DNA from: Candidatus Kryptoniota bacterium
GTDB lineage: Bacteria > Bacteroidota > Ignavibacteria > Kryptoniales > JAKASW01
NCBI GenBank assembly: GCA_046705025.1
Contig: JBJKQU010000061.1
Coordinates: 20,007 to 84,006, forward strand
Direction of reading: 5' to 3'
Length of the DNA: 64,000 nucleotides
The position numbers were made by a program, and so were the translations under genes. The notes beneath the pieces were generated by a model that worked only from the letters and a program-made list of their open reading frames with translations, was not told where the DNA came from and did no database searches. Shown here one piece after another: positions 12,940 through 64,000 of this stretch. Every line of letters starts with the position of its first letter. Position 1 is the first letter of the stretch.

Positions 12940-14205
12940 TTACGTCTTCTGCGGTTTCCTCTGTGCTGCCGGGAACAGGATGTTGTTGAGTATCAGCCTG
13001 TACCCGGGGGAATTCTTGTGAAGTGAAAGGTCGGTCGGTGGATCACCGACAAGATGCTCGTATGCCGCCGGATCGTGCCCGCCGAGAAAAGTCCATGTTC
13101 CCTTCCCGTAGTCGCCGTGAATATATTTGACTTCCTGCGTCCCTTCCTTCTGACCCATTATTATGACATCGGGCTTGATCAGGCTTTTCCTGAAAGAAGT
13201 CGTCTGCCCCATGAAGTTGTGAATCACGTTGACCTGATCCTGAGTGAGCATCGTCGGCACCGGATCATACTTTGCGGAGAACTTGAAAAGGGTAAAATAG
13301 TCGGTGGACGGGTCCCGGAACTGCACCATATCGTTCGGCGGATCGTTGATATTAGAGAAGCCGTAAACATACGGGTTTTCGATGATTTTGAAATTCTGGA
13401 ACGCCAGACAGTTCGCGTAATCGAGTTTCTCCTGTGCGTGCGGGTCCGGAGGATCGCCGTCGAATACCGCGTCGCATATGTCCACGTGCTGAGCAGCGAG
13501 CGCGATATCGAGCGTCTCGGTCGCGGAGCACATCGCAAATAAGAAGCCTCCCCGTCCTACATATTGCTTTATAGCTTCGGCGACAGCCTTCTTCTCGTCC
13601 GATACCTTCTTGAATCCCATCTTGTGTGCTTCCTTCTCATCCATCGCAACTTCCTGCTGGTACCAGGGGGCATTACGGAAAGTACCGTAGAACTTTCCGT
13701 ACTGCCCTGTGAAGTCCTCATGGTGAAGATGAAGCCAGTCATATTTGGAAAGCTTCCCCTCAAGCACTTGCGTGTCCCACACCTGGGTGAAGGGAATCTG
13801 GGCATAGTTCAGTGCCAGCGTGACCGCGTCGTCCCATGGCCGGTAGTTTGGTGGAATGTACACCGCAATCTTGGGCGCCTTTTCCAGCCGGACGACATCC
13901 ATGTTATTGTCCGCATTCTGAACGCTAGCGTAGATCTGTGCAGCCTGGGCAGCCGACAACTCGTCGAATGCCACGCCGCGTATCCTGCACTGGGTGGCAA
14001 GGACACTGTTATAGTCCATCATGAACGAACCTCCGCGATAGTTCAGCAGCCAATCGACGTCGATTCCATGTCCCAAAGCATAGTAAGCTACCCCGTATGC
14101 CTTCAGGTCGTTGGTCTGCTTGAGGTCCATATATATAAACAGTTTGCTCTGAGCGAACGCGGTCGATGCAAACAAAACCAATATCATTAGAACAAGCTTC
14201 TTCAT
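12940..14205 (-). CDS. secreted protein of unknown function with a possible class-I glutamine-amidotransferase-like nucleophile elbow
   Basis: 421-aa ORF with a signal peptide (MKKLVLMILVLFASTAFAQ). The motif GRGGFLFAMCSATE resembles a GATase1/DJ-1-type Cys elbow. The family assignment is uncertain. Confidence 0.45.
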   Translation of the reverse strand: MKKLVLMILVLFASTAFAQSKLFIYMDLKQTNDLKAYGVAYYALGHGIDVDWLLNYRGGSFMMDYNSVLATQCRIRGVAFDELSAAQAAQIYASVQNADNNMDVVRLEKAPKIAVYIPPNYRPWDDAVTLALNYAQIPFTQVWDTQVLEGKLSKYDWLHLHHEDFTGQYGKFYGTFRNAPWYQQEVAMDEKEAHKMGFKKVSDEKKAVAEAIKQYVGRGGFLFAMCSATETLDIALAAQHVDICDAVFDGDPPDPHAQEKLDYANCLAFQNFKIIENPYVYGFSNINDPPNDMVQFRDPSTDYFTLFKFSAKYDPVPTMLTQDQVNVIHNFMGQTTSFRKSLIKPDVIIMGQKEGTQEVKYIHGDYGKGTWTFLGGHDPAAYEHLVGDPPTDLSLHKNSPGYRLILNNILFPAAQRKPQKT

Positions 14206-60373: not shown

Positions 60374-60931
60374 TTATTTTGCGGATTCGTAGTAGAATAA
60401 CACATTTCCCGATTTGAAACATTCGGCTCTCAAGAACTTCAGCTCCAGCTTCCTGCCTATTCCCGCAAACGGTTGTCTTGCAGTGCCTAACACGACAGGA
60501 CACACCATCATCCGGCACTCATCGATCAGGCCCTGAGAGATCAGACTGCCGGCCAGAATGCAGTTTCCGAACATCCCTATCTCCTTTCCCTATTGCCGCT
60601 TAACCTTTAGCACCTCCTCATCGGCATTCCCTTTAACGAGCCGGGTCTAGTTCCATTCCACCTTGTCCAGAGTCCTTGAGAAGACGATTTTCGCAACCGA
60701 GTTCATCAAACCGGCGACTACCGGGTCGTTTTTGATCGCTTCCGGCGTCGGCCAGTAACCTGCCATCAGCTCGTAAGTTGCCCTTCTGAACAACAAGGTG
60801 CCGGTTTCATTCAACTGTCCGATTGCACATTCGTTGAACTCGTCGTCGACGTTATGCCAGATGATATCGTGGTCGGGTCCTTCGAAGAAGCCATCGACCG
60901 TTATCATGTCGAACAGGAAAACCTTCCGCAT
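60374..60931 (-). pseudogene. RibD_C/dihydrofolate-reductase-family gene interrupted by two in-frame TAG codons (tandem paralog of 60936-61493)
   Basis: ORFs 60647..61000 and 60374..60574 are in the same frame. The continuous reading is ...KVEWN*TRLVKGNADEEVLKVKRQ*GKEIGMFGNCILAGS..., with TAG at 60649-60647 and 60592-60590. It spans 185 codons and is collinear without indels with the 185-aa neighbour. Confidence 0.7.
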
Positions 60932-60935
60932 TCTT

Positions 60936-61493
60936 CTACTCTCTTTCCTTCTCGTAATGAAGTGCCACCATGCCCGACTTGAATGTTCTCGTCTCAACAA
61001 GTGTCAGGTTAATTCTGTCGGTCAAACCTTCAAACAGCCGTCTTCCTTTTCCGACGACGACGGGGTGCACCACCAGCCAATACTCGTCGATCAATCCGGC
61101 TTTCATCAGCTGACGGATAACGCTTATCCCGCCGATTGACAGATCTTTGCCGTCTTGTTGTTTCAACTTTCTGACGGCCTCAACGATGTCGTCGCGGATC
61201 AGAGTGGTGTTGTTCCAGTCGGCGCTCCCGAGTGTTCTAGAGAATACCATTTTTGGTATGGCGTTGAACTTAACTGCAAATTCGCGCACGCTCTTTGTTG
61301 TAGAAGGATCATTTGAAATTTTGGGCCAGGCGTGCGCCATCAGCTCGTACGTCACCCGCCCGAAGAGTGCGATGCCGGTGTTGTCGAGCAGCCCGCTGAA
61401 GAACTCGTGATGCTCATCGTCTGGGGCGACGGCGACCGTGTGGTCGGCGAAGCCGTCGAGAGATACATTTATTGCTAAGACTAGTTTTCTCAT
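60936..61493 (-). CDS. dihydrofolate reductase family protein (RibD C-terminal domain, YwjB-like)
   Basis: 185-aa ORF with MRKLVLAINVSLDGF, LFGRVTYELM, VFSRTL and GLIDEYWLVVHPVVVGKGRRLF. Confidence 0.85.
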   Translation of the reverse strand: MRKLVLAINVSLDGFADHTVAVAPDDEHHEFFSGLLDNTGIALFGRVTYELMAHAWPKISNDPSTTKSVREFAVKFNAIPKMVFSRTLGSADWNNTTLIRDDIVEAVRKLKQQDGKDLSIGGISVIRQLMKAGLIDEYWLVVHPVVVGKGRRLFEGLTDRINLTLVETRTFKSGMVALHYEKERE

Positions 61494-61511
61494 TTGTCGA
61501 TCCTTTCTGGA

Positions 61512-61943
61512 TCACTTTTGTTTCGGATACGTGTAGTTGATCATCCACCTGGTTCCATACTTATCGGTAAACATGCCGAAGTAGGCTCCCCAGAACTCAT
61601 CATGGATAGGCGTCTCAATTTTACCGTCAACGGAAAGTTTGTCGTACAATCTTTTCGCTTCGTCCTTGCTGTCGGCTTCAATCGAGATATTATAATTATT
61701 GCCGAACGTTAATTGTTGTCCCATGGATTCGAGCGCGTCGGTACCCATAAGCACGTTTCCCTTTCCAATCGGCAAAGCGACGTGCATGATTTTCTCTTTT
61801 TCCTTTGCTGGTACTCTGTCCGCGACAGGAGTCTCACCGAATCGCTGTATCGCGGTGAACTCCCCGCCGAAAACGGACTTGTAACAGTTGAACGCTTCCT
61901 CGGTGGTGCCGGGAAGATTTATGTACGGATTCATTGTGGCCAT
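61512..61943 (-). CDS. VOC (glyoxalase/PhnB-like) family protein
   Basis: 143-aa ORF with the pattern NPYINL.G...EAF.FYKSVFGGEF...MH..L.....LMG.D...........F.I....D..E....Y..L, typical of PhnB-like VOC proteins. Confidence 0.85.
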   Translation of the reverse strand: MATMNPYINLPGTTEEAFNCYKSVFGGEFTAIQRFGETPVADRVPAKEKEKIMHVALPIGKGNVLMGTDALESMGQQLTFGNNYNISIEADSKDEAKRLYDKLSVDGKIETPIHDEFWGAYFGMFTDKYGTRWMINYTYPKQK

Positions 61944-61979
61944 CTTTCTAATACCTCCTATTTTAACTAATCATGCCTT

Positions 61980-62220
61980 TTCGAAATACTAAATTCGAAA
62001 TCCTAAACTCTAAATGCCGCCTTGTCCGAAGGACGCCTTCGGCGCGGTATCCCGACACATAAATATTTTTGACGGGACAAATCCCAAATTCAAAACTCAA
62101 AACGTAAAAACGAAGCCGGCTGCATTTAGAATTTGTGGCGCTCAACTTCCAATAGTACGTATATGCGCCATGGCACAGGGCGCTCATTTAGAATTTAGAG
62201 TTTAGTGCTTAGAATTTTCT
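61980..62220. repeat. intergenic inverted-heptamer repeat element, copy A (left CTAAA-heptamer arm, copy-specific insert with GC hairpin, A-rich spacer, GC palindromic core, right TTTAG-heptamer arm)
   Basis: The left arm is TTCGAAA TACTAAA TTCGAAA TCCTAAA CTCTAAA (61980-62014). The right arm is TTTAGAA TTTAGAG TTTAGTG CTTAGAA (62187-62214). Segment 62129-62220 aligns gap-free to 63379-63470 with about 80/92 identities by my manual count. Confidence 0.8.
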
Positions 62221-62240
62221 CCCTGGTCTCTAGGCCCATT

Positions 62241-62735
62241 TCATTTGCCATCAAACGCCTTTTCCAGCGCGGCGATATCGAACTTCTTCATCTTCAGAAA
62301 AGCTTCAGTCACTCGCTCGACCTTCTTCGGGTCTTTGTCTTTCTGCATTTTTCTCAGGATCGTTGGGACTATCTGCCATGAAATCCCGTACTTGTCCTTG
62401 AGCCATCCGCACTGTTCGGCTTTCGGATCGGCGGACAGTTTCCCCCAGTAGTAATCGATCTCCTCCTGTGTTTCACACGCCACGGCGAAGGAAATAGATT
62501 CGTTGAACTTGAAGAATGGCCCTGCGCTCATGAACGTAAATTCCTGGCCGAGAAGCTCGACGGTAACGATCTCTACGGTTCCAGATGGCGTGTTGGGAAG
62601 AGTTCTCGATTCTTTGATCTTCGATCCTTTTTCGCCAGAGGTGGATCCACCTCCGGCGGAGAACACGGAAATGTAGAACTTCGCCGCTTCAGCAGCTTCT
62701 TTGTCGAACCACAGGAACGGTGTTATCGATTTCAT
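62241..62735 (-). CDS. VOC family protein (PhnB / 3-demethylubiquinone-9 3-methyltransferase-domain type)
   Basis: The start at MKSITPFLWFDKEAAEAAKFYISVF is the typical N-terminus, with AAGGAGG upstream. The protein is 164 aa with C-terminal CGWLKDKYGISWQIVP. The ORF-track 24-codon extension is repeat-derived and trimmed. Confidence 0.85.
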   Translation of the reverse strand: MKSITPFLWFDKEAAEAAKFYISVFSAGGGSTSGEKGSKIKESRTLPNTPSGTVEIVTVELLGQEFTFMSAGPFFKFNESISFAVACETQEEIDYYWGKLSADPKAEQCGWLKDKYGISWQIVPTILRKMQKDKDPKKVERVTEAFLKMKKFDIAALEKAFDGK

Positions 62736-62773
62736 AGCAACCTCCTTTATCATCAATCCGAGAAACTGTTTCC

Positions 62774-62820
62774 TTTGAAACTCCAACCGCGAAATCCTAA
62801 ACTCCAAACGAATTCAAAAC
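62774..62820. repeat. degenerate partial copy (left-arm heptamers only) of the repeat element, copy C
   Basis: TTTGAAA CTCCAAC CGCGAAA TCCTAAA CTCCAAA followed by an A-rich AATTCAAAAC. It shares CGAAATCCTAAACTC with copies A and B. Confidence 0.5.
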
Positions 62821-62839
62821 GTCGGGGTACCTGCGATTC

Positions 62840-63250
62840 TCAACCTCTTTTTGATTTTGAACGTCGCTGCTCGCTTTCATCAATCATCGCGCTCAGATCC
62901 GCAGCCGGCCTGATCTCCCAGCTTCCTCCTCCTCTACCTAGGGCAAGGGAAGGATGATTCGACATCAACTGAATCGCATGGTTCAGGTCGTCGGCCCCTA
63001 ATATCATGATCCCGCCGATTTGCTCTTTTGTCTCCGCAAACGGGCCGTCGATCACGGAGACTCTTCCGTTCTGGATCCGCAAAGTAGCCGCATTCGTTCC
63101 CGGTTGAAGGGCCTCGCCGCCGGCATAGTGGCCGGTTCTTTTCAACGCCTCGTCGTACGTAAAACATTTATCCACGAAATTGTTCCGTTCGATCTCGGAG
63201 AAGTTCGCGAATATGTCTTCGTTCATGTATCCAAGACAAATGTATTTCAT
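62840..63250 (-). CDS. YciI family protein
   Basis: The start at MKYICLGYM has AGGAGA upstream. The protein is 136 aa with the DGPFAETKEQIGG core. The ORF-track extension is trimmed. Confidence 0.85.
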   Translation of the reverse strand: MKYICLGYMNEDIFANFSEIERNNFVDKCFTYDEALKRTGHYAGGEALQPGTNAATLRIQNGRVSVIDGPFAETKEQIGGIMILGADDLNHAIQLMSNHPSLALGRGGGSWEIRPAADLSAMIDESEQRRSKSKRG

Positions 63251-63280
63251 TTCAGTCTCCTGTTGTGTTCCACTCAACGT

Positions 63281-63470
63281 GTGAAACTCTAAATCCGAAA
63301 TCCTAAACTCTAAACAATATCAAAAATCAAAACCAAAAACTTCAAAACTGCTTTCGAGATTTTCAGAATTTGTATTTTGAATTTGTGGCGCTCTACTGTT
63401 AAAACTGTGTATATGCGCCATGGCGCACAGCGCTCATTTAGAATTTAGGGTTTAGTGCTTAGAATTTTCT
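63281..63470. repeat. intergenic inverted-heptamer repeat element, copy B
   Basis: The left arm is CTCTAAA TCCGAAA TCCTAAA CTCTAAA (63287-63314), followed by a 7-nt phased A-run spacer. The core contains the perfect palindrome GCGCCATGGCGC (63415-63426). The right arm is TTTAGAA TTTAGGG TTTAGTG CTTAGAA (63437-63464). Confidence 0.8.
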
Positions 63471-63918
63471 TCCGGTGTTTCTCAATCGCTTCTTGTACCA
63501 CCTTACTCTCTCCTGCTTCTCGGACCTCAGGAGGCATCTCGGACCAATCGAATATTTGCCGAACTTCGATCGTGGCGCCGGAATCGACTGTCACAGCCGG
63601 ACAACGCTTCGCCCATTCGACGGCTTCTTCCTTCGACTTCACATCGATCAGCCAGTAACCGCCGACCACTTCTTTCGCTTCGACGAACGGGCCATCCGTT
63701 ACAGTCGTCTTCCCGTTCTTGAATGTGACCCTTGCCCCCATCGTCAGCGGATGAAGCCCGTCCAACGAAACGAGTATTCCGGCTTTGGCCATTTCCTCGT
63801 TCTACTTCATCATCTCGGCGACGGCCTCCTTCGGCGGCGCGAAATTCTCATCCGCTTTCTGCTTCGACGACGAATTCGGCTGATACTCCGGCGGAATCAT
63901 AAATATCATGTATTTCAT
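63445..63918 (-). pseudogene. YciI family gene with a single in-frame TAG at codon 39 (or a read-through/recoded gene). A 115-aa ORF restarts 3 codons later.
   Basis: My manual translation starts from the ATG at 63918, with AGGAGG 8 nt upstream. It reads MKYMIFMIPPEYQPNSSSKQKADENFAPPKEAVAEMMK*NEEMAKAGILVSLDG..., and the TAG lies at 63804-63802. It continues in frame into ORF 63445..63792 with DGPFVEAKEVVGGYWLIDVKSKEEAVEWAKRCP. Confidence 0.65.
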
Positions 63919-64000
63919 TTCAAACCTCCTCTTGTTTTCTAAGTAGTCGTTTGACAACCGGCGAAATTGACAACGTCGCAGAAAAACATTCCTGACCCGG

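Follow-up and report, generated by a model that had tools for sequence, protein, structure and literature searches.

Heptad-built hairpin elements in the spacers of a YCII gene array belong to a dispersed family with PF05635-bearing members and copies in 23S rRNA

The window, by which we mean the whole 64-kb stretch of DNA that was analyzed, ends on its right side in an array of small genes that all lie on the minus strand (Table 1). The gene order over 60936..63250 (minus) is also found in loci L121 and L122, and the motif GACGTTGTC.ATTT..C.GGT.GTC...CGACTAyTTA has been kept upstream of the first YCII gene in the window (63940-63990), in L121 (200-260) and in L124 (13700-13735); in L124 the CGACTACTTA part of the motif occurs a second time, before another gene. 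It probably serves the array as promoter or operator. Taken together, the synteny with L121 and L122 and the conserved upstream motif suggest a single promoter, and on that reading the repeated elements described below are intercistronic. Two genes of the array are damaged. A second RibD_C-like gene (60374-60931, minus strand) seems to be disrupted, with ORFs at 60647-61000 and 60374-60574 and two stops in the translation of 60377-60931. The first YCII gene contains an in-frame TAG at 63802-63804 (minus strand; ..AEMMK-stop-NEEMAKAG..), which is absent from the initial annotation of this DNA and at which the orthologues have Tyr (MMKYNEE). The public annotation of this gene is apparently just a 106-residue C-terminal fragment (P0098). 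Either the gene is a pseudogene or the consensus of the metagenome-assembled genome (MAG) is wrong at this codon.

Table 1. Genes and element copies at the right end of the window
Feature	Position	Strand	Remarks
YCII-family gene (first), 157 codons	63445..63918	-	PF03795, 66 bits; 3' end enters copy B
Copy B, full, quasi-palindrome of about 190 bp	63283-63471	-	ahead of the next YCII gene
Copy B, outer 5' arm (gene sense), CTAAG/CTAAA heptads	63437..63471	-	shared with copy A (repeat family D1)
Copy B, GC-rich core nested in the 5' arm, GAGCGC..TGCGCCATGGCGCA..N19..GAGCGCCAC	63385..63436	-	inverted repeat I15
Copy B, inner A/U-rich hairpin, CAAAAyy heptads pairing with rrTTTTG	63316..63384	-	RNA fold
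Copy B, 3' arm, whose end is 32 nt ahead of the ATG of the second YCII gene	63283..63315	-	profile match
YCII gene (second)	62840-63250	-	co-directional array
Partial copy C, 3' arm only (GTTTGGAGTTTAGGATTTCGCGGTTGGAGTTTC)	62777..62859	-	upstream of the 3-dmu-9_3-mt gene; repeat D2
3-dmu-9_3-mt gene	62241-62735	-	co-directional array
Copy A, full	61983..62221	-	between the 3-dmu-9_3-mt and glyoxalase genes
Glyoxalase/VOC gene	61512-61943	-	co-directional array
RibD_C gene	60936-61493	-	co-directional array

Three copies of an element of about 190-240 bp are packed into 1.5 kb of the window; elsewhere up to 5 copies occur in 14 kb. Read in the sense of the genes, the full copies start with a 5' arm, GAAAATTCTAAGCACTAAAC(C/T)CTAAATTCTAAAT, which is followed by a GC core, an A/U-rich hairpin and a 3' arm, GTTTAGAGTTTAGGATTTCG(G/A)ATTTAG.., and the ribosome-binding site and ATG of the next gene come 30-40 nt past the 3' arm. 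The inverted repeats I1, I3 and I6 of the window are the terminal inverted repeats, which are predicted to fold into a long stem. The folding energy is -60 kcal/mol (z = -4.7) for the sense RNA of copy B and -77.9 kcal/mol (z = -3.2) for copy A. The outer 5' arm of copy B matches the family consensus AAAyyCTAAGCACTAAAyyCTAAA and its 3' arm holds the exact 20-mer GTTTAGAGTTTAGGATTTCG (63315-63296, minus strand). By the architecture of the family, the inner hairpin of copy B takes the position that is occupied in full-length members by an ORF of the PF05635 family. Copy A consists of a 5' arm (62187-62221), a GC core (62135-62186), extra GC hairpins (62027-62075) and a 3' arm (61983-62015), and the TGA of the gene upstream of it (62243-62241) lies about 20 nt ahead of the element.

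The GC core contains a 14-nt palindrome, TGCGCCATGGCGCA (63414-63427 in copy B), around which two GAGCGCC repeats stand about 40 nt apart, an arrangement also seen at L124 12860-12915. Written as TCTAAATGAGCGCC..GCCATGGCGCAT..GAGCGCCACAAA, the motif is limited in its known occurrence to window copies A and B, L126 and, from a different genome, L123-L125. Across the two genomes the boxes are identical and the spacer is equal in length and variable in sequence. A nested mini-element and a protein-binding site are both conceivable readings of the core, which may have a local function of its own.

Copy C, reduced to a 3' arm, is probably a remnant left by a deletion. At the equivalent place, L124 (12845-13700) has a further YCII gene (13030-13422), which the window lacks, with an element on either side of it. 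Copy C looks like the leftover of a recombination between two elements, a hint that the elements mediate loss and gain of genes in such arrays.

The first YCII gene, which encodes a YciI protein, reads into copy B. Its stop lies inside the repeat, as the initial annotation had claimed: the ORF ends in ...EKHRKKILSTKP, followed by the TAA at 63447-63445 within CCCTAAA. The block that copies A and B have in common (62121-62223 and 63371-63473, 85% identity) holds the last nine or so codons of the gene and its stop, and the last eight or so (KKILSTKP) together with the TAA are encoded by the outer 5' arm of copy B. Alignment with orthologues, the check proposed at the time, revealed that a tail of the KKILSTKP type is not the usual C-terminus: 109 of 118 alignable orthologues end 0-5 residues past the ...EKHR column, and the window protein runs 8 past it. 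The orthologue in L124 has a TGA directly after EKHR and no 5' arm behind it. Two other orthologues, P0007 (..KHKKETLSSKY) and P0017 (..KHSRKTLNTEL), have tails of the same kind as the window protein, and in the DNA of P0007 (L121) the ORF ends inside an element at the same junction as in the window. Since these two proteins bear such tails, P0007 with the DNA of the element, the fusion of YciI to the element is old or recurrent. In a further orthologue with a tail of this kind, P0009 (L120; ..KHRRKTLNSKQIRNPNVQNLKNGFEVSGFEF...), the ORF is read in frame through a whole element for 37 residues. The original proposal that the element had inserted into, or replaced, the native 3' end of the gene is therefore correct with regard to the tail, which is derived from the element, and overstated with regard to the conserved C-terminus, which is intact and has about 7 residues appended. 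Copy B lies at, or immediately before, the native YciI stop, and translation continues for about 7 codons into the arm and halts at the first in-frame TAA.

The window copies are members of a large family. A profile of the family built with nhmmer from 47 elements recognized copy B (E = 2.4e-15), copy A (1.1e-7) and partial copy C (1.3e-6) and no other site in the window. The same profile yielded 296 matches in 684 kb of loci collected by the 20-mer, versus 0 in 835 kb of unrelated genomes. The latter control comprised 119 genome loci from a scan with the 16-mer GTATATGCGCCATGGC, which gave only chance matches in genome contigs. The exact 20-mer GTTTAGAGTTTAGGATTTCG of the 3' arm recurs in at least 120 stretches of JGI metagenome sequence, and at 87 of 112 20-mer sites an inverted partner arm lies upstream at a distance of 50-156 nt (median 98 nt). 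The 20-mer matches in L128 and L137 are not elements but chance matches to eukaryote-type, telomere-like TTTAGGG arrays, which do not belong in a count of the family. The family consensus, AAAyTCTAAAy.CTAAryTCTAAATCCTAAACAAAtyCaAAAtyCaAAA..loop..TTTtGaaTTTtGgaTTTGTTTAGAGTTTAGGATTTCGgaTTTAGgaTTT, is alike on both strands; it is a quasi-palindrome composed of CTAAAyy/CAAAAyy units in the first half and rrTTTAG/rrTTTTG units in the second. Carrier contigs range from 32 to 69% GC, and the MAGs to which they were linked by exact or at least 90% identical neighbor proteins bear the labels Candidatus Howlettbacteria, Planctomycetota and Dehalococcoidia. The window itself groups with a MAG labeled Candidatus Kryptoniota and is probably from this lineage. 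In the loci examined, copies that lack an ORF are far more numerous than those that have one.

This distribution agrees with the early view of the repeat as an element of the mobile kind: the family is dispersed and, judged by its spread, probably mobile. At the A/T-rich boundaries no target-site duplication was recognizable and no clean empty site was found; nor did a comparison of L123 with L124 at the 3-dmu/glyoxalase junction provide one, as the flanking genes differ as well. A blastn search of plasmids with copy B gave no match, and a search of viral contigs gave no core match. A looser arm pattern was found in 24 IMG/VR contigs (L247-L270), including a giant-virus MAG, in which the family profile had 32 matches and which may be true viral carriers or misclassified contigs; no PF05635 ORF was seen in these arm-bearing contigs. 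In Rfam there was no gathering-level match for the window, and in 61900-64000 just a chance match to a lncRNA (E = 0.43).

Across L127-L246, the strand with the exact 20-mer runs antisense to its co-directional neighbor genes in 35 cases and sense in 10, and the window copies have the minority orientation. A strand-specific RNA function is not supported, as the two strands fold about equally well (mean energies -39.2 versus -37.4 kcal/mol). RNAalifold of the family identified only 12 pairs, all of them invariant, since the search pattern had dictated the 3' arm. In many family members small GC-rich hairpins (e.g., CCTGCCnnnnGGCAGG, TCCCGC..GCGGGA and CCCCGTTAAG..CTTAACGGGG) interrupt the A/T-rich arms at differing places, in L139, L146, L148, L164, L222, L226 and L283 and at 62027-62075 of the window. 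They look like a second layer of nested mini-elements.

In six loci (L166, L214, L167, L133, L199 and L212) the arms enclose an ORF of about 115-135 codons. The three of these ORFs that were scored against Pfam (L166, L133 and L167) match PF05635 with 44-60 bits (cut-off 33.8), and L271, L277, L279 and L283 are further ORF-bearing members. PF05635 is the family of the 23S rRNA intervening-sequence (IVS) protein (S23p, "four helix bundle protein", Avd-like); it is no known transposase. In L142 only the C-terminal half of the ORF is left, which means that at least some short copies are internal-deletion derivatives. The association was also found from the side of the protein. Four of four PF05635 homologues that had been picked by a protein search, without use of the DNA motif, have the same CTAAA/TTTAG arms on both sides; one of them is labeled Methanophagales archaeon and another Ignavibacteria. 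Their inner heptads encode the N-terminus MTKIQNSKQY, and each is a lone gene between unrelated genes. No PF05635-like ORF was found in the 64-kb window itself. Plasmids of Nostoc and Chlorohelix carry more distant PF05635 genes, on either side of which other heptamers (AAGTAAA; ATGAAKK) form inverted arrays, and a copy in Bernardetia has direct heptamer arrays rather than inverted ones. On the Nostoc plasmid NZ_CP040299.1 (27283-27639; L287), the PF05635 gene with its inverted AAGTAAA arrays lies between cas2 and cas1. The heptamer arrays around the cyanobacterial genes may be related to the classical STRR or TAACTGA repeats.

Members of the family also reside inside 23S rRNA genes, namely those of L246 and L218 (LSU_rRNA_bacteria, 809 and 1015 bits, respectively). 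One element of L246 lies in the hairpin at LSU model positions 1206-1221, directly past CCGAAgccgcGG; this hairpin is presumably helix 45, the classical IVS site. In both genes (L246 11470-14053; L218 1-3656) there are several elements, with insertions of about 1.3 kb over the aligned part, and in L246 a tRNA call (13026-13097) falls inside the LSU match. The window copies, by contrast, sit between protein-coding genes and not in 23S rRNA.

How the elements relate to the ends of genes was determined for 244 element boundaries, of which 115 face the tail of a gene, 86 the head of a gene and 43 neither. At 30 of the 115 gene-tail junctions (26%) the stop codon lies inside the element, mostly in the first CTAA, and more than half of the stops at these junctions are no more than 30 nt from the element boundary. 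Other copies are thus related to ORF ends, as had been anticipated from the YciI gene. Donation of a stop codon by the element is real, but it looks incidental.

The arms were initially viewed in a different light, as a module made to end translation in any frame, that is, a selected six-frame translational insulator that would terminate ribosomes entering from either side. The observations from which this idea arose are accurate. Each of the segments 62187-62214 and 63437-63464 consists of four phased heptamers, TTTAGAA TTTAGrG TTTAGTG CTTAGAA, which place TAG in plus frames 0, 1 and 2 and TAA in minus frames 0, 1 and 2, so both full window copies shut all six frames within 28 nt. In the left arms (61985-62015 and 63283-63315) just two of three frames are closed on each strand, likewise as described. 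Three or more phased TTAG or CTAA heptamers occur in the 64-kb window solely at the arms of copies A and B. However, six-frame closure is arithmetic and no independent coincidence, because the unit that bears the TAA or TAG repeats with a period of 7, and since the element is a quasi-palindrome of 7-nt units, either strand opens with TAA heptads that rotate through the frames. The same arithmetic was noted by MacGregor for TAACTGA repeats (PMC4679880).

Of 252 family arms, only 26% close the three entering frames within 28 nt and only 24% all six, the commonest state being closure of two of three frames (55%). Within 42 nt the three entering frames are closed in 36% of the arms versus 16% of shuffled arms, and over the whole 140 nt in 90%, values that would favor an insulator, as does the quarter of gene-tail junctions that draw their stop from the element. 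The T of CTAAA that forms the stop is nevertheless often swapped in the family arms (T 656 times versus G, C or A 373 times), and in individual copies heptads with CGAAA or CCAAA face TTTCG or TTTGG on the opposite arm. To judge from these sequences, pairing rather than the stop codon may be what the arms retain. Also arguing against an insulator are the ORF of P0009, which is translated in frame through an entire element, the presence of the same arms inside 23S rRNA, where translation is irrelevant, and the stop-free heptads of distant family members, such as AAGTAAA and ATGAAGG. With family statistics, rRNA copies and stop-free relatives all against it, a designed insulator is very unlikely, and stop-rich heptad arrays should not be annotated as evidence of one.

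The arrangement of genes around the elements bears on a second alternative, in which the element is not selfish but an intercistronic RNA structure selected by the host, such as a REP/ERIC-like stabilizer, a processing site or a bidirectional terminator, that tunes the YCII operon. Flanking genes are co-directional in 45 cases, convergent in 5 and divergent in 2, and the elements typically fill the co-directional spacers almost exactly, as in the rplW-rplB spacer of L223. The window and L121, whose proteins are no more than about 80% identical, have both kept an element at one and the same junction, the window copies fold strongly, and their confinement to one gene array would suit a locus-specific role. 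Yet the presence of the element differs from junction to junction among syntenic arrays, members of the same family are known from unrelated operons, from rRNA and from several phyla, and its ORF-bearing relatives look like insertions between unrelated genes. Furthermore, an intrinsic terminator, with a GC stem and a U-tract on the strand of the genes, was not found on the minus strand in 61800-64000. Recruitment by the host is thus an unlikely explanation of the window copies, though less so than the insulator.

Two narrower functions were weighed against the same data. The heptad arms might act on the translation of the downstream gene, for which the distance of 27-41 nt between the 3' arms and the start codons in the window, L121 and L124, the presence of GGA motifs and a published analogue (PMC4679880) could be cited. 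The arrays are, however, base-pairing inverted pairs that also face gene tails and lie in rRNA, and the arm sequence is conserved across phyla that would hardly have one regulator in common, which makes such a role highly improbable. Least probable of all, to a degree that we would hardly count it among the candidates, are integron-type attC sites that mark cassettes in an array of small genes. The co-directional arrays of small YCII, glyoxalase, DinB, SnoaL and DUF1801 genes and a DUF433 pair have that appearance, and the imperfect palindromes begin at ORF 3' ends and terminate in ..AAAC / GTTT... Their ends are nonetheless CTAAAC/GTTTAG and not RYYYAAC/GTTRRRY, in L124 an element occupies just 2-3 of about 30 junctions, several genes overlap by 4 nt, and the same element is present in ribosomal-protein operons and 23S rRNA. 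Integron, promoter and terminator readings of the element were all rejected.

In the most plausible model, the right arm forms the outer arm of a hairpin element that lacks an ORF, and the family of this element has full-length members with PF05635 genes and includes IVSs of 23S rRNA; three copies (B, partial C and A) occupy spacers of the operon, and copy B provides the tail and stop of YciI. We consider this account, including the tolerance by RNase III that it presumes, to be likely. Weighing against it are the conserved GC core of the window copies, their confinement to one gene array, the orientation bias of the 20-mer, a cargo protein that is no known transposase and the failure to find a target-site duplication or a clean empty site. 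In analogy to the IVSs of rRNA, the transcribed arms would pair into a stem of about 30 bp that is cut by the RNase III of the host, and such cutting would account for the tolerance of the element within helices of rRNA and in the spacers between cistrons. Insertions would last only where they leave coding sequences alone or touch no more than their margin. An ORF that lost its own stop by such an insertion would close within a few codons because the TAA heptads rotate through the frames, and the donation of stop codons would be a side effect of where insertions survive.

A more general model can be offered tentatively, as one possibility that we would not yet favor. IVS elements, with or without PF05635 cargo, may constitute a single cross-domain family of mobile hairpins that colonizes any transcribed spacer, be it an rRNA helix or intercistronic mRNA, and survives through excision by RNase III. 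The heptads might then be the recognition sites of a pentameric, Avd-like four-helix-bundle protein that mediates the spread, the ORF-less copies would be MITE-like satellites, and the STRR and TAACTGA repeats would perhaps be related remnants.

IVSs with S23p ORFs in 23S rRNA have long been known. In the searchable literature we found no description of the same IVS family dispersed between protein-coding genes, of heptad-array arms conserved across contigs labeled as several phyla and an archaeal MAG, or of the numerous ORF-less copies of the family, and the string TTTAGAGTTTAGG did not occur there. The origin, mobility and function of the 23S rRNA IVSs and of the abundant S23p/PF05635/Avd-like proteins have been questions since the early 1990s. 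The window displays an IVS-type family outside of rRNA, between ordinary genes, and the family extends over several bacterial phyla and at least one archaeal lineage. With its conserved arms, its pairs with and without cargo and its sites in rRNA and in mRNA, it forms a concrete and abundant data set, and it accounts for C-terminal tails encoded by elements, both short ones and long ones that arise by read-through, as in P0009.

Several known systems resemble the family in part. The PF05635 cargo is homologous to the Avd proteins of diversity-generating retroelements (DGRs) (PMC10053308), which suggests a nucleic-acid-handling role of the cargo protein; unlike in DGRs, no reverse transcriptase and no template or variable repeats were seen beside the elements examined. 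MacGregor (2015; PMC4679880) described intergenic direct repeats of the heptamer TAACTGA in Beggiatoaceae, Cyanobacteria and Bacteroidetes that are distributed patchily across phyla, are present in ribosomal-protein operons too and have no known mechanism of mobility; 13 sets of them run over the stop codon of the gene upstream. As in the present arms, their 7-nt units generate stops in three frames, and they are intergenic (PMC4679880). Unlike the present arms, they are direct, located on one side of a gene and built of another heptamer, and neither an inverted partner nor a link to PF05635 was reported for them.

MITE-like palindromes (ERIC, Correia/NEMIS, REP/BIME) are small, non-coding and structured and often abut or overlap ORF ends in transcribed spacers. 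The window element shares with them its shortness, its lack of coding capacity, its terminal inverted repeats, its several copies and its kinship to ORF-bearing copies, one of which (L142) has an internal deletion. It differs from them in that the cargo is no known transposase, no target-site duplication was found and the whole element is built of heptads. Short ORF-less IVS hairpins in the 23S rRNA of enterobacteria and Campylobacter measure about 100-150 nt and are tolerated thanks to their removal by RNase III; to our knowledge they occur only within rRNA. The window element is likewise a hairpin without an ORF.

The closest resemblance is to the S23p-bearing IVSs of 23S rRNA in Coxiella burnetii and Leptospira (PMC4990558), which have a long stem of terminal repeats, heptamers next to the ORF start and a PF05635 cargo that forms a four-helix bundle. 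In Coxiella the stem is a 28-bp inverted repeat, tandem heptamers precede the start of S23p and the IVS is located in helix 45; it is excised by RNase III and was described as selfish and horizontally transferred (PMC4990558). The present arm family is found in 23S rRNA genes as well, once in what is presumably the helix-45 hairpin. In contrast to the S23p-bearing IVSs, the window copies are devoid of an ORF and separate protein-coding cistrons, and the arms of the family are long CTAAAyy arrays, with an exact 20-mer common to contigs labeled as several bacterial phyla. In an archaeal MAG, too, a PF05635 gene is bordered by arms that the family profile recognizes.
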